Shown here piece after piece: positions 10,616 to 25,961 of a stretch of 32,000 nt of DNA (position 1 is the first letter of the stretch; every line of letters starts with the position of its first letter). The DNA comes from Candidatus Karelsulcia muelleri. GTDB taxonomy: Bacteria > Bacteroidota > Bacteroidia > Flavobacteriales > Blattabacteriaceae. The position numbers and the translations under genes are program-made. The stretch spans positions 110,702-142,701 of the forward strand of contig NZ_CP069423.1 of NCBI RefSeq assembly GCF_016888765.1, in the 5' to 3' direction. The notes beneath the pieces are model-generated. The model had not been told where the DNA came from, did not search any database, and saw nothing but the letters and a program-made list of their open reading frames with translations.

Positions 10616-11020
10616 ATGTTAAAGCCAAAAAGAAATAAATTTGAGAAACTCCATAAAGGCAGAATAAAAGGATATGCTAAAAAAGGTACAAAACTTCACT
10701 TTGGGATATTTGGACTGAAGACTTTAGATACAGCTTGGCTTTCAGATAGACAAATCGAAGCGGCTCGCATTGCGGCGACACGACATATGAAAAGACAAGG
10801 AAAATTATGGCTCAATATTTTTCCTAATAAGCCTATTACAAAAAAACCTCAAGAAGTTAGAATGGGAAAAGGAAAAGGGGCTATAGACCATTGGGTTTCT
10901 GTGGTAAAACCTGGGAGAATCTTAATAGAAATCGATGGAGTAAATTTGGAAATAGGAAAAGAAGCTTTAAGATTAGCTGCTAATAAATTACCAATAAGAA
11001 CAAAATTAATTTTAAAATGA
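10616..11020 (+). CDS. rplP: 50S ribosomal protein L16
   Basis: MLKPKRNKFEKLHKGRIKG...QIEAARIAATRHMKR.GK.W...FP.KP.TKKP.EVRMGKGKG. TGA stop overlaps the rpsQ ATG (ATGA). Confidence 0.95.
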   Translation: MLKPKRNKFEKLHKGRIKGYAKKGTKLHFGIFGLKTLDTAWLSDRQIEAARIAATRHMKRQGKLWLNIFPNKPITKKPQEVRMGKGKGAIDHWVSVVKPGRILIEIDGVNLEIGKEALRLAANKLPIRTKLILK

Positions 11021-11259
11021 TGAGGAAAAAAAAAAGACTTGGTATAATATTAAGTGATAAAATGAATAAAACAAGAGTAGTAGGTGAAGTAGTAAAAAGG
11101 AAACATAAGATTTATAAAAAGAATATTTATTATACCAGAAAATATTTTGTTCACGATGAAAACAATCAATCAAATAAAGGGGATACAGTAGAAATAATTT
11201 TTACACGACCATTAAGTAAGAAGAAACGTTGGAATTTATTTCAAATAATAAAATGTTAA
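11017..11259 (+). CDS. rpsQ: 30S ribosomal protein S17
   Basis: GIILSDKMNKTRVV...YFVHDENNQSNKGDTVEIIFTRPLSKKKRW matches the S17 core (VVSDKM...HVHDENN..GD.V.I...RPLSK.K.W). Confidence 0.9.
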   Translation: MMRKKKRLGIILSDKMNKTRVVGEVVKRKHKIYKKNIYYTRKYFVHDENNQSNKGDTVEIIFTRPLSKKKRWNLFQIIKC

Positions 11260-14063: not shown

Positions 14064-14552
14064 ATGAAAGTACAAGGAAAAAAATTAAAAGAGAAATTAG
14101 TAACTTTAAAAAGAGTATGTAAAGTTACAAAAGGAAGAAGATATTTCAGTTTTACAGCTTTAGTAGTTAAAGGAAACAAAAAGGGGTTAGTAGGCTTTGG
14201 GGTTGGAAAAGCTAAAGAAACACAAAACGCTGTTAGAAAGGCTGGAGAGAAAGCAGAAAAAAGATTGTTTAAAATTTCATTAAAAGGAGGAACTATTCCT
14301 CATGAACAAAAAGCTAAGCATGGCAGTACTTATATATTTCTTTATCCAGCTTCAAAAGGAACTGGAATAATTGCAGGTGGTGTGGTTAGAATAGTTTTAG
14401 AATTAGTAGGTGTAAAAAATATTTTCTCTAAATTGAATGGTTCGTCTAATTCTAATAACTGTATTAGGGCAGTAATATTAGCTTTAACAAAAATTAGAAA
14501 TGCAGATACTATATCAAAGGAAAGAGGGATATCTATTAAAAAGATGTTTTAA
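14064..14552 (+). CDS. rpsE: 30S ribosomal protein S5
   Basis: V.LKRVCKVTKGRRYFSFTALVVKGN.KGLVGFGVGKAKE...A..KA and GTGIIAGG.VR.VLEL.GVKNI.SK. Confidence 0.93.
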   Translation: MKVQGKKLKEKLVTLKRVCKVTKGRRYFSFTALVVKGNKKGLVGFGVGKAKETQNAVRKAGEKAEKRLFKISLKGGTIPHEQKAKHGSTYIFLYPASKGTGIIAGGVVRIVLELVGVKNIFSKLNGSSNSNNCIRAVILALTKIRNADTISKERGISIKKMF

Positions 14553-14566
14553 GTAAGTAAGTTCCC

Positions 14567-15040
14567 ATGATTCTGAATCATTTAACTCCTATTAAAGGCT
14601 CAAATAAGAAAGGCAAACGATTAGGCAGAGGAAAAGGTTCTGGAAAAGGAAAAACCTCTACTAGAGGTAATAAAGGTGCTAAATCCCGTTCTGGAAATTC
14701 TGTTAAATTAGGATTTGAAGGTGGACAAATGCCGTTCCATAAACGTATTCCCAAATTTGGATTTAAAAATCTAAATAAAAAAAAATATAAAATCTTTAAT
14801 TTAGAAACGATAGAAGATCTAATAAATATTGGAAAAGTAAAAAGAAATTTAATAAATAATAATGTATTGAGAAAAATTGGTTTATTAAAAAAAACCGAGT
14901 TTTTTAAAATCTTAGGAAGAGGTGAATTAACTCATAAAATAAAAATTTTTGCTCATAAGTTTAGTAAAACCGCCTCTTTAAAGATTAAAACCCTTGGAGG
15001 AAATCCTATAATAACAAATGACGAAAGAAAAATATCTTAA
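14567..15040 (+). CDS. rplO: 50S ribosomal protein L15
   Basis: L.P..GSNKKGKRLGRGKGSGKGKTSTRG.KG..SRSG....GFEGGQMPFHKR.PK.GF. Confidence 0.9.
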   Translation: MILNHLTPIKGSNKKGKRLGRGKGSGKGKTSTRGNKGAKSRSGNSVKLGFEGGQMPFHKRIPKFGFKNLNKKKYKIFNLETIEDLINIGKVKRNLINNNVLRKIGLLKKTEFFKILGRGELTHKIKIFAHKFSKTASLKIKTLGGNPIITNDERKIS

Positions 15041-15209
15041 GACAAGGGGATAGTAAAACAAAGTCCAATTAAAATCCAACAGGATAGTAACTGGATATAT
15101 AAAAGGTAAAATGAGAATGAATTATATTCAAATTTTCCAAGGCGATAAAGTAAAATTGCCTATTTAATATTATGATTTAACTAAAGCAAGAATAATATAT
15201 AGATACTAA
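15018..15209 (+). pseudogene. infA: translation initiation factor IF-1 pseudogene (three in-frame stops and a ~8-codon internal deletion)
   Basis: A single frame reads MTKEKYLKTRG**NKVQLKSNRIVTGYIKGKMRMNYIQIFQGDKVKLPI*YYDLTKARIIYRY*. The last 49 codons are collinear with the IF-1 OB fold (E. coli [51 protein letters not shown]). Stops at 15051-15056 (TAG TAA) and 15165-15167 (TAA). Canonical position before rpmJ. Confidence 0.8.
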
Positions 15210-16726: not shown

Positions 16727-17716
16727 ATGATTTCACCAGCCCAGATAAAAATATTAAAACATTCTAAAAATAGAGGTAAATTTTTAATAAAACCATTAAG
16801 TCCTGGCTTTGGAATTACTCTAGGGAATTCTTTAAGAAGAGTTTTAATTTCAGATTTAGAAGGTTATGCCATATATTATATAATGATTAATGGTGTCAAA
16901 CATGAATTCTCTTATATAGATGGAGTAATAGAAAATCTAACTGAAATAATATTAAATTTAAAACAAATACGGTTTAAATTAAAAAGTAAAATGTATAACA
17001 AAATACCAGAACATTTTACAATATTTTTAACAAAAAAACAGTCTAAAATTACTGCTGGAGATTTATGTGGATCTATTACTTGTTTGGAAGTATTGAATCC
17101 AAATTTATTAATTTTGAATAAAGAGTTAGATGCTAATTTAAAGATTACTCTCGGCATTAAAAAAGGAGTTGGATATGTTCCAGTAGAAAAACCACAGACT
17201 AAAATAGGGAAAATACCAATTGATACTATTTTTAGTCCCATAATAAACGTAAGATTCAAAGTAGAAACTTGTGAAGTTAATAATTTCTATTCATCCGATA
17301 GTTTGATTATAGATATTCGTACTGATGGTTCAATTACTCCAAACAAGGCTTTAAAAACAGCTTCTAGTATACTAGTACAACATTTTACTTTATTTTTTAA
17401 TGGGAAAAAAACAGAATTAAAGCTCCCAATAAAATATACTGCTTATAAAGCAAGAATAAAATATTTCTATATGCAAAAACTTTTAAAGTGTTTAAAATTT
17501 GCTAAAATTAAAACTTGGGCTGACTTAGTCAAAATGAAACCTTCTGATTCTGATTATAATTATGGAGGAGGTCTTGATTTATCAAAATATAAAATGAAAA
17601 TTTCTAATAAAAAAAAAAGAATAAAAAATTTTCGTGAAAAAATGAGAAAAATAGTAAAGCTAAGAAATCTTATTAAAAGAAGAAAACTGACCAAAAGAAA
17701 TGAGACACCAAAATAA
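16727..17716 (+). CDS. rpoA: DNA-directed RNA polymerase alpha subunit (N-terminal domain intact, C-terminal domain eroded)
   Basis: 329 aa. The N-terminal domain is collinear with the family (GFGITLGNSLRRVLIS.LEG, IDTIFSPI..V.F.VE). C-terminal domain: only LLKCLKFAKIKTWADLV is recognisable, followed by a Lys/Arg-rich tail. Confidence 0.92.
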   Translation: MISPAQIKILKHSKNRGKFLIKPLSPGFGITLGNSLRRVLISDLEGYAIYYIMINGVKHEFSYIDGVIENLTEIILNLKQIRFKLKSKMYNKIPEHFTIFLTKKQSKITAGDLCGSITCLEVLNPNLLILNKELDANLKITLGIKKGVGYVPVEKPQTKIGKIPIDTIFSPIINVRFKVETCEVNNFYSSDSLIIDIRTDGSITPNKALKTASSILVQHFTLFFNGKKTELKLPIKYTAYKARIKYFYMQKLLKCLKFAKIKTWADLVKMKPSDSDYNYGGGLDLSKYKMKISNKKKRIKNFREKMRKIVKLRNLIKRRKLTKRNETPK

Positions 17717-18050
17717 AAATAATAATTTAGGGCGAAATAAGTCTCATAGAAAAGCCCTTTTAACTAATCTGGCTATTTCCCTAATAAAATATAAAAGAAT
17801 TAAAACAACTTTTGCTAAAGCAAAAGCTTTAAAAAAATTCATTGAACCAATAATAACTAGAGGTAAAAAACAAGATACTCATTCTATGCGAATAGTATTT
17901 AAAAAATTAAATAATAAAACTGCTGTTTTGGAACTTTTCAAAAAGATATCAAAACATAATTTAAAACGTAAGGGAGGATATACAAGAATTATTAAACTTG
18001 GCAAGAGGTTAGGAGATTTTTCAGAAATGGCAATAATGGAGCTAGTTTAA
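17700..18050 (+). CDS. rplQ: 50S ribosomal protein L17
   Basis: MRHQNKNNNLGRNKSHRKALLTNLA..L......I.TT..KAK and GGYTRI.KLG.R.GD.SEMAI.ELV. Confidence 0.9.
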   Translation: MRHQNKNNNLGRNKSHRKALLTNLAISLIKYKRIKTTFAKAKALKKFIEPIITRGKKQDTHSMRIVFKKLNNKTAVLELFKKISKHNLKRKGGYTRIIKLGKRLGDFSEMAIMELV

Positions 18051-18952
18051 TGAAATATTTTCATATACCAGTTTTCTTAACGGAAGTTCTAGAAAACATT
18101 ATTAATGATATTAATGGGATCTATCTAGATACTACTTTTGGTAGCGGTGGACATTCTTTTGGGATATTAAAGCAAATAAGTAATCAAGGGAAATTATTTG
18201 CTTTTGATCAAGATCAATTTGCAATTATTAAAAATAAAATTTGTGATAAAAGAATCAGATTTTTTAACGATAACTTTAGAAATATACAAAAAATATTAAA
18301 AGCTTATAAAAACAACATTCTAAAGAATGTATCAGGAATAATAGCTGATTTAGGAGTTTCCTCTTATCAGATAGATAACCCTCAGCGAGGGTTTTCAATA
18401 AGATTTAATCAAATTTTGGATATGAGAATGGATTTATCGAAACAAAAGTCGGCTTTAAATATAATAAAAAATTATTCTTTTGAAAAATTAAATAAGATTT
18501 TTTCTAAATATGGGGAGTTTAAAAATCCGCAAAGAATATCTAGAAAAATTGTTTTAAACAGTAAATTTCTTAACACTACTTTGGATTTAGTAAATCTATT
18601 CAAAAGAAATAATAACAGGAAATTTTTCTCTAGATTATTCCAAGCTTTAAGAATAGAGGTAAATGATGAAATCAATGCATTAAAGCAATTACTGAAACAA
18701 TCAATAAATATTTTAAAACCGGGAGGTAAATTAGCTATTATTTCATATAATTCATTAGAAGATAGGTTAGTTAAAAACTTCTTTCAAAGTGGAAATATAC
18801 AGGGAATTATTAGATATGATAAGAAAGGGAATAATTTATCTCCATTTAATAAAAAATATACTAAAAGAATTTTTCCAACTAAAGAAGAAATCTCTAAAAA
18901 TAAGAGAGCTAGAAGTGCTATATTAAGAATTACACAAAAAACAGTATGTTGA
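18050..18952 (+). CDS. rsmH: 16S rRNA (cytosine1402-N4)-methyltransferase RsmH (MraW)
   Basis: HIPV...E......GIYLDTTFGSGGHS, ADLGVSSYQID.P.RGFS, LRIEVNDE and SYNSLEDR.VKNFF. TGA stop at 18950-18952, inside the rnpB 5' stem. Confidence 0.9.
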   Translation: MKYFHIPVFLTEVLENIINDINGIYLDTTFGSGGHSFGILKQISNQGKLFAFDQDQFAIIKNKICDKRIRFFNDNFRNIQKILKAYKNNILKNVSGIIADLGVSSYQIDNPQRGFSIRFNQILDMRMDLSKQKSALNIIKNYSFEKLNKIFSKYGEFKNPQRISRKIVLNSKFLNTTLDLVNLFKRNNNRKFFSRLFQALRIEVNDEINALKQLLKQSINILKPGGKLAIISYNSLEDRLVKNFFQSGNIQGIIRYDKKGNNLSPFNKKYTKRIFPTKEEISKNKRARSAILRITQKTVC

Positions 18953-19238
18953 TTTATCGCATGTTTTAAACAATGAGGAAAGTCTGGACACATAAGGGAT
19001 AACACAACGGGTAACACCCGTACATCGTGAGATGAGGACTAGTGCAACAGAAAGTATGTACAGTTGAGCTGTAGTGAAATCATGTAAACTCTGTGTTGTG
19101 AAATGCCAAATATACCAGCAGTATAGTAGTATAGTTCATCCCGGAACTATTTTGGGGGGTAGGCAGATCGAGATAAAAGGTAACTTTTATCCTAGATAAA
19201 TGATAAATTATCCTGAATCCGGCTTAGAAACATACTGT
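18941..19238 (+). ncRNA. rnpB: RNase P RNA (bacterial type A, size-reduced)
   Basis: Conserved blocks read directly: GAGGAAAGTCTGGAC (18975-18989, the conserved 5' block carrying the P4 5' strand with a bulged U), GGGTAACACCCG, AGTGCAACAGAAAG (19041-19054), CCTAGATAAATGA (19191-19203) and GAATCCGGCTTA (19215-19226, P4 3' strand). AAG-U-CUGGA pairs with UCCGGCUU. The terminal P1 stem is acagtatgtt (18941-18950) paired with aacatactgt (19229-19238), extendable to 14 bp. Ends are +/-5 nt. Confidence 0.88.
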
Positions 19239-20849
19239 TTTTAACAAATTTTTCTCTAGATTATTTAGATCTAAGAAGAACAATATTTTTGATTTTAAAT
19301 TTACTAAATTAGAAACTTTTAAGATTTTTTTTATTAGGTTACTTATTTCTAACGAAGCCAGCTTTGGTTTCGTTTCTAATTTGTAAAACTTGTATATATT
19401 TTTAGAGATTAATTTTTCAATTATTTTATCATTTTGGTAAAGATAAATATCATATAATAACCTATATACATATATTTTTTTTAAAAACTTAGGAGAAGAA
19501 GTAATTGAAATAGAATTTTCAAAACAGTTTATTTTAAACCCAAAATTATTTAAAATTTCTAGAATGTGTTTTTTAGTGGTTGAAGTCAAGAATTTATTCA
19601 ATTTAATATTTATCGGTGGGTATAATTTATAGCTTTGGTTAAGTTCTTTTTTAAAATTATACTCTAAAATTATTTTATAGACTCTATCTTTATGAAGAAT
19701 TAAAAGACCAAAATCTAAAAGACAGAATATATATTTTTTATAGATCTTATAAGGAAATTGGTTATCCAGAACTATCTTCTTAAGAACTTCTTGACAATTA
19801 TTATTTTGTTCCCGTTTTTTTTCTTCTTTATCTTTAGAGTAAAACTTAAAAATATTCTGTATGCCTAAATATTCTTTAATTATTAGATTTATATTTTTAC
19901 AAATTTCTGACTCTGATTTAATGAGTATTTTTTTTTTGGATTGACAAATATTAATTTCAATTTGTTTTGTTGGAATAGTAAGAAATAAAAAATAATTTGG
20001 TTTATTAGTTTTGCTTATTAGACCGTTATATGCTCTAATAATAGACTGGTGAATTCTTTTGTTTACTACGTATCTATTATTAACAAACAAATAATAATTC
20101 TTAAATTGAGTATTAAAAAAACTGGTAGAAGTGATATATCCTTTTATAAGAAATAATTTGTCTTTTTTAAAAACTTGGATTAAGACATTTTTATAAGCTT
20201 CGCCAAAAATTTGAAGAATTCTATATTTTAGATATGAGGTTTTAAAACTGGTAATTATCTTATTATTATGCATCATAACAAAATTAATATCAGGGTGTGA
20301 AAGAACTATCTTATTAAATTCTGAGATGATATATCTTAATTCTATATGGGCAGATTTTAAAAAGTTTTTTCTATTGGTGAAATTGTAAAATAAGTTTTTC
20401 ACATATATACTAGTACCATTTAATAAATTATTTAATAATACAGGGGGATATTTAAGCTTTTGATTTTCTAATGTTAAGAAGGCTCCAAATTCGGAGTTGT
20501 GTTTTTTAGTGTATATTTCTACCTGGCTAACTAAAGAAATATAGTATAAAGCTTCCCCTCGAAAGCCTTTAGTATTTAGTGATTTTATATCTTTAAGAGA
20601 AGATAGTTTTGAAGTATAAAATCTCCTAATACTATTTTTCGCTTCTAAATGATTCATGCCATCACCATCATCTATAACATTAATTAAATCTTTCCCACCA
20701 TTCAATAAGATTAATTTAATATTTTTTGCATGTGCATCAATTGAGTTTTCTAATAATTCTTTTACTACTGAAGCCGGTCTTTTAATTACATATCCTGCTG
20801 AAATTTTATTTGAATCTTGTGTGGGGATAATTTTAATGGTATTTTTCAT
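19224..20849 (-). CDS. mutL: DNA mismatch repair protein MutL (ATPase domain conserved, C-terminal endonuclease motifs degenerate)
   Basis: 541 aa with GHKL ATPase motifs ELLENSIDA, VIDDGDGM and KGFRGEAL. At the position of DQHA(X)2E(X)4E the C-terminal region reads HKDRVYKIILEY. No CPHGRP-like motif. Confidence 0.88.
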   Translation of the reverse strand: MKNTIKIIPTQDSNKISAGYVIKRPASVVKELLENSIDAHAKNIKLILLNGGKDLINVIDDGDGMNHLEAKNSIRRFYTSKLSSLKDIKSLNTKGFRGEALYYISLVSQVEIYTKKHNSEFGAFLTLENQKLKYPPVLLNNLLNGTSIYVKNLFYNFTNRKNFLKSAHIELRYIISEFNKIVLSHPDINFVMMHNNKIITSFKTSYLKYRILQIFGEAYKNVLIQVFKKDKLFLIKGYITSTSFFNTQFKNYYLFVNNRYVVNKRIHQSIIRAYNGLISKTNKPNYFLFLTIPTKQIEINICQSKKKILIKSESEICKNINLIIKEYLGIQNIFKFYSKDKEEKKREQNNNCQEVLKKIVLDNQFPYKIYKKYIFCLLDFGLLILHKDRVYKIILEYNFKKELNQSYKLYPPINIKLNKFLTSTTKKHILEILNNFGFKINCFENSISITSSPKFLKKIYVYRLLYDIYLYQNDKIIEKLISKNIYKFYKLETKPKLASLEISNLIKKILKVSNLVNLKSKILFFLDLNNLEKNLLKTVCF

Positions 20850-23561: not shown

Positions 23562-24656
23562 ATGGCAGAGATAATTTACATGCCACGTTTAAGTGATACT
23601 ATGAAAGCAGGTACAATAGTCAAATGGTATAAAAAAGTAGGAGAAAAAGTATTAAATGGAGACCTGTTAGCAGAAATAGAAACAGATAAAGCGATTCAAG
23701 AATTTGAATCCGAATATAATGCTACTTTACTTTATATCGGAGTTAAAGAAGGAGAAAAAGCAAAAGTAAATGATATATTGGCTATTATGGGTGAAAGAAA
23801 TGAAAATATAGATTATTTAATAAAGAAGAAGAAGAAGAAAAAAATTTTAGTATCCCCATTAGCAAAAAAAATAGCTTTAGAAGAAGGTATCCAATTAAAA
23901 ACTTTAAAAGGAAGTGGACCAAAAAACAGAATTGTTAAAAAAGACCTAATAAAACTTCTCAAAACAAAACAAAATAAAAAATATAATATTAAAAATATTT
24001 CTAATATAAGGAAAATCATTACTGAACGCTTATTAAAATCAAAAAAGATTTCTCCACATTATTATTTATTTCTCGAAGTTACTGCAGAGAATTTAATAAA
24101 ATTTAAAAAGTATATTAATAAAAAATATACTAGTAAAATTTCTTTTAATGATTTAATAGTGAAAGCTACTGCTTTATCACTTAAAAAAAATAAAACCATA
24201 AATTCTTCATTGAAGAAAGAAAGGATTATATATCACCAAGATATTAATATAGGTATTGCCGTTTCCTTACCAGAAGGACTAATTGTACCGGTAATAAATA
24301 ACGTTGAAAAAAAATCTTTCATAAAAATTTCAAAAGAAATAAAAGAAAAAATAGAAAGATATAGAAATAGAAAAATTACTAAAACAGACCTCGAAGGAAG
24401 TACTTTTACAATTTCTAATTTAGGGATGTTTGGGATAGATTGTTTTACTTCTATAATAAATCAACCTAATTCGAGTATTTTATCAGTAGGAAGTATTCAA
24501 AGAAAACCTATAATTGATAAAAACAAAATAAAAATAGGAAATACTATAAAATTTACTTTAGCTTGTGATCATAGAATTATAGATGGTGCAGTAGGTAGTA
24601 CCTTTTTACTTACTTTAAAAGAATACTTGTTAGAACCAATAACTATGTTAATTTAG
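23562..24656 (+). CDS. pdhC: dihydrolipoamide acetyltransferase (E2) of the pyruvate dehydrogenase complex
   Basis: Single lipoyl domain (LAEIETDKA), poly-Lys linker, E3/E1-binding domain (VSPLAKKIALEEGI.L..LKGSGP..RI.K.D) and catalytic domain (GSTFTISNLGMFG, DHRIIDGA). Confidence 0.9.
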   Translation: MAEIIYMPRLSDTMKAGTIVKWYKKVGEKVLNGDLLAEIETDKAIQEFESEYNATLLYIGVKEGEKAKVNDILAIMGERNENIDYLIKKKKKKKILVSPLAKKIALEEGIQLKTLKGSGPKNRIVKKDLIKLLKTKQNKKYNIKNISNIRKIITERLLKSKKISPHYYLFLEVTAENLIKFKKYINKKYTSKISFNDLIVKATALSLKKNKTINSSLKKERIIYHQDINIGIAVSLPEGLIVPVINNVEKKSFIKISKEIKEKIERYRNRKITKTDLEGSTFTISNLGMFGIDCFTSIINQPNSSILSVGSIQRKPIIDKNKIKIGNTIKFTLACDHRIIDGAVGSTFLLTLKEYLLEPITMLI

Positions 24657-25078
24657 AAGTTTTTAGGAATCTGTTTTAAGAACTCTATGCCATCATTTTT
24701 AAATTCGAAAATAATTGTTTTAATTCCATTTGTAAGAACGAGATATTGGCTTTTGAATCTCAAATAATATTTCATTATTTGATCAAAAGATTTAGATGAA
24801 ATCTTTACTTCAGGAGATTTACATTCAACTATCAGAAATGGTCTGTTTTTTTTAATAACTAGAATATCTAGCCGATTTTTAATATTATAAAAAGTTGAAT
24901 TGAATTCGACATATATTTCCTGAACCTTATAGCCTCTATTTTTTATTAGATAATAAATTATCTTTTGTCTCACTAATTCTTCTTTAGTTAAAAGATAATA
25001 TTTTTTTCTAATTAAGCAAAAAACGTACCTTTTCCCATTAAATGTTTTTAGCTTATTTTTTAGCTTAAATTTATTCAA
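24653..25078 (-). CDS. HsdR_N-like (type I restriction enzyme R N-terminal / PD-(D/E)xK-like) domain protein
   Basis: The core LTKEELVRQKIIYYLIKNRGY....I.VE......NRLDILVI.KNRPFLIVECKSPEVKIS...FDQI.KY......YLVLTNG resembles the small conserved protein found next to holA in Flavobacteriia (family recalled from memory). The track ORF (to 25288) has no internal ATG before this homologous core and overlaps holA antisense. I place the start at TTG 25078 (MNKFKLKNK...). Confidence 0.6.
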   Translation of the reverse strand: MNKFKLKNKLKTFNGKRYVFCLIRKKYYLLTKEELVRQKIIYYLIKNRGYKVQEIYVEFNSTFYNIKNRLDILVIKKNRPFLIVECKSPEVKISSKSFDQIMKYYLRFKSQYLVLTNGIKTIIFEFKNDGIEFLKQIPKNF

Positions 25079-25109
25079 TATATTGTAATTTGTAATTTCT
25101 TGTTTTATT

Positions 25110-25961
25110 ATGATTACAAATCTTAAAATTAAAGAAATTAAACCAATTTCTATTTTTATAGGTGAAGAAGAATATCTTATAAAAGAATATATAGAAGAGA
25201 TAGAGAAGCTTTTAAAGCACAGGAGAAAAAAATATTCTAAAGCTATTATAGAAATAAAAGAAAAAATAGAAAGATATAGAATAACCAATATTTTAGAACA
25301 ACTTTACACTCTTACTCTTATTAAAGAATATAAGTTAATTATTATTAAAAATTCGCAATATCTAAGCTTAGATAACTTAGAAAAATTACTAAAACAGACC
25401 TCGAAAAGAAATATTTTAATTTTTTGTATTAATTTCGTAATTCCCTCACGTAATTTAGAATTTTATAATTGTCTTAAACAAAAAACAAATAACAACATAG
25501 AAATTCTAAATAATAAAAAATTAACTTTTGGGGAAATTTTTTATTTAGTAAAAAGAAAAATAAAAAAAATAGGATTAAAGATAAATGAAATAACAGTAAA
25601 AAAACTGATACAATCTGTTGATTGTAACTTATTTATGCTCGAAAATGAGTTAAACAAATTCCAAATAAGATTTAATACTGCTACTGCTAATAAGAAGAAT
25701 ACTGAATGGAAAATGATTTTAAATCTGCTTGAAAGACACCCCCTAACTTTAATATTAAATAAAATATATAAACTATACTTAGACAAATTTATGAATTATA
25801 ATAATAATGAAGAAAAATTTAAGAAAATAGCTAATTTAGTTTTTCTACTAAAAGAAGCCGATAAAAAAAATAAAAGCTATTTTTTAAAAAAGGAAGAAAT
25901 AATGAAAGAACTAATTTATAAAATATGTCAAATAGAGAAAGAGAAAGCTTTGATTGTATAA
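25110..25961 (+). CDS. holA: DNA polymerase III delta subunit
   Basis: 283 aa. IKPISIFIGEEEYLIKEYIEEI and KLIIIKNSQYL......L...L......ILIF are collinear with HolA N-terminal domain patterns. Weak overall conservation, so the call rests on these patterns and on length. Confidence 0.72.
   Translation: MITNLKIKEIKPISIFIGEEEYLIKEYIEEIEKLLKHRRKKYSKAIIEIKEKIERYRITNILEQLYTLTLIKEYKLIIIKNSQYLSLDNLEKLLKQTSKRNILIFCINFVIPSRNLEFYNCLKQKTNNNIEILNNKKLTFGEIFYLVKRKIKKIGLKINEITVKKLIQSVDCNLFMLENELNKFQIRFNTATANKKNTEWKMILNLLERHPLTLILNKIYKLYLDKFMNYNNNEEKFKKIANLVFLLKEADKKNKSYFLKKEEIMKELIYKICQIEKEKALIV

Follow-up and report, generated by a model that had tools for sequence, protein, structure and literature searches.

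A decayed infA locus in the ribosomal-protein cluster of a planthopper Sulcia and its counterparts in related genomes

Organization of the locus

The window, the whole 32-kb stretch of DNA analysed here, derives from Candidatus Karelsulcia muelleri (Sulcia), a symbiont of planthoppers, and corresponds to positions 110649-142648 of CM132401.1 (GCA_053760665.1; 142,648 bp). On the forward strand rplO, encoding ribosomal protein L15 (14567-15040; assigned from Pfam PF00828 and gene tables), is followed by a relic of infA, the gene for translation initiation factor IF-1 (15018-15209), then by an intact rpmJ encoding L36 (15235-15351; PF00444 at 51.9 bits) and by rpsM. The str-S10-spc-alpha cluster is otherwise intact and the relic occupies the position directly upstream of rpmJ that is expected in spc/alpha clusters. 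The same gene order, with an intact infA, is observed in two other Sulcia genomes (L083 and L085) and, with secY added, in the cicadomorph Sulcia ENCA. The latter, with an RpsM identity of 69%, served as the secY-containing outgroup; its genes run rplO, secY (431 aa), infA in that order (L003 2395-3690). No secY is present between rplO and infA in the window or at any of the eight planthopper Sulcia loci examined.

The relic is 192 nt in length compared to 216 nt in intact orthologues, and was delineated by translation, Pfam, tblastn and orthologue alignments. The frame 15018-15209 reads MTKEKYLKTRG, two consecutive stops, NKVQLKSNRIVTGYIKGKMRMNYIQIFQGDKVKLPI, a further stop, YYDLTKARIIYRY and the terminal stop. 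The stops correspond to TAG TAA at 15051-15056, TAA at 15165-15167 and the native stop at 15207-15209, all on the forward strand, and the translation quoted in the first-pass annotation is exact, stop positions included. With the stops masked, the relic matches PF01176 (eIF-1a/IF-1, an S1-like OB fold) with E=5.9e-12 and 45.5 bits against a gathering score of 30.2 bits, relic residues 15-62 aligning with profile positions 17-64. In tblastn searches of the 32-kb window an intact Sulcia IF-1 (P0001) finds the locus with E=2e-26. An E. coli IF-1 sequence (74 residues) does so with 5e-14. The orthologue from Sulcia-RANSCY (WP_204086352.1) shares 73% identity with the relic over a 71-residue alignment. 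Profile score, tblastn match and the order rplO-relic-rpmJ thus bear out the original assignment of an infA relic in its canonical place.

The public gene calls for CM132401.1 have no entry at the position of the relic. An uninterrupted open reading frame of about 71 codons with a complete OB fold is not present, the frame being broken by two deletions and by stops. Judged from the nucleotide sequence, the locus 15018-15209 cannot encode a functional IF-1. The original reading was the same on this point, and it stands in view of a frameshift, 24 missing nucleotides and the premature stops.

The relatives compared include CALKRU (CP069645; Callodictya krueperi, Dictyopharidae), RANSCY (CP069424) and PYRCLA (CP094963), with hosts taken from the supplement of PMC10333215. 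As had been pointed out, the ATG of the relic (15018) lies inside the 3′ end of rplO. The first 23 nt (15018-15040, forward strand) are at the same time the last eight codons of the rplO ORF (14567-15040), the product of which ends TNDERKIS. The intact infA of RANSCY (216 nt, 71 aa) overlaps rplO by the identical 23 nt and the overlap is therefore ancestral rather than a product of decay. Since they specify the C-terminus of RplO, these nucleotides are retained, and the start of the relic is still under selection as part of that gene. The extent of rplO varies among strains. It reaches eight codons into infA in the window, CALKRU, RANSCY and some other strains; in L085, PYRCLA (L086) and L094 it ends before the infA ATG. 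An rplO stop codon has evidently been lost in part of the group, with the result that the first 23 nt of the relic are now constrained.

Several other features of the window were noted. Two ribosomal protein genes were not seen in the gene order, rpmC (L29; expected between rplP and rpsQ, 10616-11259) and rpmD (L30; expected between rpsE and rplO, 14064-15040), and no Pfam match is on record for the rplX product (109 aa). The alpha C-terminal domain (PF03118) was not detected in RpoA of the window (16727-17716; 329 aa), nor in most of the RpoA clusters of planthopper Sulcia, and the longer RpoA proteins of P0022, P0023 and P0027 (370-402 aa) still match it. RNase P RNA (18941-19242; Rfam RF00010, 172 bits) shares sequence with two genes, at the 3′ end of rsmH (18050-18952) and, on the other strand, at that of mutL (19224-20849), which illustrates the tight packing of the genome. 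A 283-aa ORF without a Pfam match (25110-25961) overlaps a minus-strand ORF (24653-25288), the shorter called version of which matches HSDR_N-type domains.

Lesions and their origin

The orthologous locus was aligned at the DNA level across seven planthopper Sulcia genomes, with L094 as an eighth. Relative to intact infA, one nucleotide is deleted near codon 8/9 of the relic (15039-15044, forward strand; placed after 15041 in the alignment, the exact base being ambiguous) and the frame is shifted. This deletion converts ...GGN ATA GTA AAA CAA... (G-I-V-K-Q) into ...GGA TAG TAA AAC AA..., and the tandem TAG-TAA (15051-15056) arises when the ancestral GGN ATA GTA AAA (G-I-V-K) is read out of frame. 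A second deletion, of 23 nt, has its junction at 15057-15062 with a boundary that is ambiguous by 3 nt; it has removed the ancestral AAGCTTTCCCAAATGCTACCTTC, codons 15-22 or thereabouts. Together the two deletions restore the frame with a net loss of 24 nt, and the alignment confirms the loss of about eight codons that was evident from the relic itself. The remaining lesion is a nonsense codon at 15165-15167, where TCA, specifying Ser58 of the intact protein, has become TAA. Codon 58 is TCA or TCC in the intact orthologues and in PYRCLA; TAA is found here also in CALKRU and in L092.

The first-pass annotation described three nonsense hits with no frameshift, a scheme that amounts to a single in-frame deletion of 24 nt plus substitutions. 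We rejected this, because about 10 mismatches over 21 nt, counted by eye, are required by the in-frame alignment as opposed to 3 when the 1-nt indel is admitted. The earlier description is therefore mistaken in mechanism. The TAG-TAA pair is the consequence of the 1-nt deletion, the frame is recovered by the 23-nt deletion, and only the TAA at 15165 is a substitution. A similar adjustment applies to the N-terminus, where a resemblance to IF-1 had been noted over 11 codons. Codons 1-8 (MTKEKYLK) are indeed homologous in frame, but codons 9-13 (T, R, G and the two stops) are out of frame, and the genuine IF-1 residues, DKGIVKQS, are preserved at the deletion in the +2 frame of the window.

Is the damage real? 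The relic region is AT-rich and homopolymer-rich, and base-call or assembly errors in such a low-complexity stretch might have introduced stops and deletions into an infA that is truly intact. The Logan assembly of run SRR13267227 (contig L088) is however identical to the window over 14960-15100, a span that covers both deletions, the junction and the TAG-TAA pair. Of the two Logan contigs on either side of the relic, one stops at 15100 and the other begins at 15203. Coverage, repeated k-mers or polymorphism may be responsible for this break inside the relic, and the second assembly of the sample misses the TAA at 15165. That codon is present, together with the same 1-nt and the same 23-nt deletion, in CALKRU, which derives from a different insect, sequenced and published separately. 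Six other relatives carry lesions of their own at the infA locus. Sequencing or assembly error is essentially refuted as an explanation and we give it a vanishingly small probability.

Age of the inactivation

The closest IF-1 and RpoA proteins all belong to Candidatus Karelsulcia muelleri and are encoded on chromosomes of 138-160 kb. The nearest relative of the window strain is CALKRU (CP069645), with an RpoA that is 96% identical and a difference of 2.0% at the 4-fold sites of flanking genes. The two share the 1-nt deletion with its frameshift and TAG, the 23-nt deletion with the same boundaries, the TCA to TAA change and a CCA to CAA change. Lesions that belong to CALKRU are a GAA to TAA change at codon 4 and a 6-nt deletion. 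A neighbour-joining tree based on six flanking genes (899 codons) groups the window with CALKRU, and then these two with L091 (CM132419, 145,114 bp), each at 100% bootstrap; the placement of RANSCY, L092, PYRCLA and L087 is not settled by the 2.7 kb compared. The infA of L091 is broken too, having lost 19 nt from the corresponding region and 6 nt across codon 58, and a GTA to GTC change is common to all three strains. The overlapping deletions are compatible with the loss of 13 nt in the common ancestor, followed by 10 nt more in the window/CALKRU lineage and by 6 nt in L091.

The relic has diverged from its counterparts at much the rate of the flanking 4-fold sites. Between the window and CALKRU the values are 0.031 for the relic and 0.020 for the 4-fold sites, rising to 0.078 and 0.070 with respect to L091 and to 0.125 and 0.143 with respect to L092. 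For RANSCY and L085, which both have an intact gene, infA divergence is 0.083 against 0.312 at the 4-fold sites. The ratio is about 1 within the window clade as opposed to 0.27 for the intact pair, and purifying selection on the coding sequence is not apparent in the relic. Twelve sites differ between the window and L091, where 2.9 would be expected under the constraint seen on intact copies (P=5e-5, Poisson) and 10.7 if the locus were neutral. The 3′ half is somewhat more conserved than the 4-fold sites, with 1/120, 5/114 and 11/106 differences; these small counts may reflect a weak residual constraint on that half, for example as a leader of rpmJ. We also considered that the relic might be strongly constrained in the role of an RNA or a leader, and rejected this since the divergence counts fit neutrality.

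The gene is long dead, because lesions are shared with CALKRU, L091 is broken as well and divergence is approximately neutral, and the inactivation would date from about the base of the window/CALKRU/L091 clade. The first impression had been of a fairly recent inactivation, to be dated against the orthologous loci of sister strains. That comparison gives the opposite answer: the stops are old and were inherited together with CALKRU, L091 is also disrupted, and the divergence of the relic equals that of the 4-fold sites. The relic looks well preserved because Sulcia mutates very slowly. We hold with high confidence that the feature is a non-functional infA pseudogene, dead since the common ancestor with CALKRU and CM132419 at the latest and drifting more or less neutrally.

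Recurrence among planthopper Sulcia

Other lesions disrupt infA in at least four further planthopper Sulcia lineages, three Pyrops strains included. In PYRCLA, from Pyrops clavatus (Fulgoridae; L086, CP094963 2910-3135), the gene is frameshifted and annotated as a 43-aa 'IF-1', a form also seen in the other two Pyrops strains. L087 (CM132423) combines a TGA at Leu26 with a two-codon deletion. In L092 (CM132422) the start codon is lost, 26, 10 and 4 nt are deleted and TAA occupies codon 58. L094 (CM132441) has deletions of 27 and 17 nt and its 3′ end is deleted into rpmJ. Within the window clade, CALKRU (L089, CP069645 1290-1510) carries three stops in addition to its deletions. At least five different sets of infA lesions are seen among planthopper Sulcia. 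An intact 71-aa IF-1 is encoded by at least 15 other planthopper Sulcia chromosomes. The relic is a candidate unitary pseudogene of a reduced endosymbiont genome, the orthologue being intact in relatives and the lesions inherited by sisters.

One further genome, L093 (CP138191), is rearranged just upstream of rpsK and is uninformative with respect to infA. In this sequence (CP138191.1, 117,708 bp; 1-2340) grpE and dnaJ lie, in opposite orientation, ahead of rpsK, rpsD and rpoA, so that the ribosomal-protein cluster is interrupted between rpsM and rpsK. The genome is probably one of the rearranged kind with two chromosomes, as in TRYOCC or Brixia.

Two of the hosts are dictyopharids, with infA intact in RANSCY and broken in CALKRU, and Pyrops is a fulgorid. 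Strict co-diversification of Sulcia with its hosts is reported in PMC12992758. We take the losses in the CALKRU clade and in Pyrops to be independent because the lesions differ and because host taxonomy and co-diversification place RANSCY, with an intact gene, between them. On this argument several other lineages of planthopper Sulcia would have lost a functional infA in separate events, a count that depends on differing lesions and host taxonomy. The text of PMC11264691 lists infA as present in CALKRU and PYRCLA, and Fig. 5B or Table S2 of that paper may mark pseudogenes. Contrary to that text, both sequences are disrupted.

Residual function and possible translation without IF-1

Two questions bear on whether IF-1 is really missing. 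Does the genome carry another infA? Could the relic, broken as it is, still give a working product?

An intact infA elsewhere in the same Sulcia genome would make the relic redundant, and our direct reading covered 32 kb, leaving 110 kb of the chromosome. Within that 32-kb window of the 142.6-kb chromosome no second IF-1-like locus was found, the next tblastn match being no better than E=0.03. Neither was an IF-1-like protein from CM132401.1 found among the hits or cluster members in a protein collection that holds the gene calls of this genome, though the same search recovered even fragments of 39-43 aa from sister genomes, as well as IF-1 of free-living Bacteroidota. The gene is single-copy at the rplO-rpmJ position in Sulcia genomes, and PMC12992758 records zero gene gains in 63 Sulcia genomes that are largely collinear. 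A second copy is in our view very unlikely.

With respect to a working product, readthrough, programmed frameshifting, an altered code or a C-terminal mini-protein might be envisaged. Formally the frame is back in register, 192 nt being divisible by 3, the C-terminal 39-45 codons are open to the native stop in PYRCLA, L087 and L091, and the 3′ half of the relic is well conserved. Against this, three stops of two kinds would have to be suppressed, and neighbouring genes normally end in TAA or TAG. Eight codons of the first β-strand region are gone. The TAA at codon 58 removes the conserved C-terminal YDLTKARIIYRY in the window, which is why the longest ATG-initiated ORF within the relic is just 18 codons. 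The lesions in sister genomes are not equivalent, including as they do a lost start codon and out-of-frame deletions, and divergence is close to neutral. Rescue by recoding is accordingly highly unlikely. Stop usage in 32 genes of the window is TAA 25, TAG 5 and TGA 2; the standard code applies because all three terminate normal genes here, and an alternative genetic code was rejected on the same grounds.

The pseudogene reading leaves these Sulcia, so it would seem and as the first-pass annotation had concluded, either to initiate without IF-1 or to use a factor supplied from outside. After its first 23 nt the relic probably persists as a transcribed spacer between rplO and rpmJ, and this remainder would be read through as part of the operon. 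Since infA has repeatedly been inactivated independently, the symbiont-encoded factor appears to be dispensable in the planthopper symbiosis.

Planthopper Sulcia are without 7-11 aminoacyl-tRNA synthetase genes, and supply of translation components by the host has been proposed (PMC11264691, PMC12992758). An external substitute for IF-1 fits both these losses and the proposed host-supplied components. The plastid offers a model of such functional transfer, whereby IF-1 activity would come from the host nucleus, through a transferred infA or a retargeted factor, or from the co-symbiont Vidania. This would explain repeated decay, given repeated independent losses of infA within one host clade in which 7-11 synthetase genes are already absent and for which the authors propose host-supplied translation components. 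Two points argue the other way. Protein import into Sulcia is not reported in the papers cited. In mitochondria an insertion in IF2 replaces IF-1, such that a bacterial-type ribosome can work without it. We view functional transfer as a possibility, and a somewhat doubtful one.

A broader proposal, which we put forward tentatively, is that planthopper Sulcia as a group no longer need an IF-1 of their own following a change in their common ancestor. Such a change could be a host or co-symbiont factor, or an alteration of IF-2 or the ribosome similar to the mitochondrial IF2 insertion. The pattern of losses does suggest that the requirement for an IF-1 encoded by the symbiont has been relaxed across the lineage, which agrees with the proposed takeover of translation functions by the host. 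If the proposal is true, these symbionts would provide a natural series in which to follow how bacterial-type translation comes to do without a 'universal' initiation factor as organelle status is approached.

Comparison with known systems

IF-1 is essential in E. coli and, to our knowledge, is retained in nearly all tiny symbiont genomes; for this reason every loss on record contributes to defining a minimal translation apparatus. The initial remark that even very small symbiont genomes normally keep the factor is largely correct, though exceptions have been published, Sulcia among them (PMC11264691; bioRxiv 10.1101/2024.10.23.619753; 10.1101/2025.10.31.685726). A single case therefore adds little. 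One Sulcia strain already has a published infA loss, IF-1 loss or decay is on record for Walczuchella, and the genome studied here is one of the published 63-genome set. That set, of planthopper Sulcia genomes ranging from 137,729 to 180,379 bp, is described by Michalik et al. 2026 (Nat Commun, PMC12992758), and the main text of that paper makes no mention of infA. What the present comparison adds is that the loss is old, that it recurs with different lesions, and that the CALKRU and PYRCLA copies are broken despite the text of 2024.

Against the intact Sulcia IF-1 (WP_204086352.1) the window has an orthologous locus, but one that is frameshifted, is 24 nt short and contains three premature stops. 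In plastids, infA pseudogenes and transfer of the gene to the nucleus are reported to have been described by Millen et al. in 2001, with a nuclear copy carrying a transit peptide said to be demonstrated. In both cases infA has decayed more than once and independently, at the one operon site beside rpl36, within a genome that is reduced and derives from bacteria. The difference is that the nuclear copy is demonstrated there, whereas no external copy is known for the window strain.

Among insect symbionts, infA is missing or pseudogenised in some Walczuchella and in other Bacteroidota symbionts of scale insects (bioRxiv 10.1101/2024.10.23.619753; 10.1101/2025.10.31.685726). The authors call the loss of IF-1 striking since the factor is usually retained. 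These are likewise flavobacterial endosymbionts of insects with tiny genomes, but they represent another symbiont genus in other hosts, and the available passages on IF-1 contain no lesion-level or dating analysis. Recurrent loss of an initiation factor within one Sulcia radiation has a parallel in the leafhopper genus Nesophrosyne, where infC (IF-3) was lost at least six times independently (Vasquez and Bennett 2022, PMC9379567). The factor is a different one and those Sulcia keep infA and infB (PMC9379567).

Loss of infA in Sulcia itself was reported for TRYOCC, from Trypetimorpha occidentalis (Tropiduchidae), by Michalik et al. 2024 (mSystems, PMC11264691); the supplement consulted has no entry for infA. 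The two cases agree in symbiont genus, in having planthopper hosts, in the gene that is lost and in the aminoacyl-tRNA synthetases that are missing. They differ in that TRYOCC has a rearranged two-chromosome genome (117,224 + 36,330 bp, 23.9% GC) and the loss is there presented as exceptional (PMC11264691), whereas the window strain has a single 142,648-bp chromosome on which the relic is still recognisable. Set beside these systems the relic is an ordinary pseudogene, older and more widespread than first thought, and a new instance of a published phenomenon.
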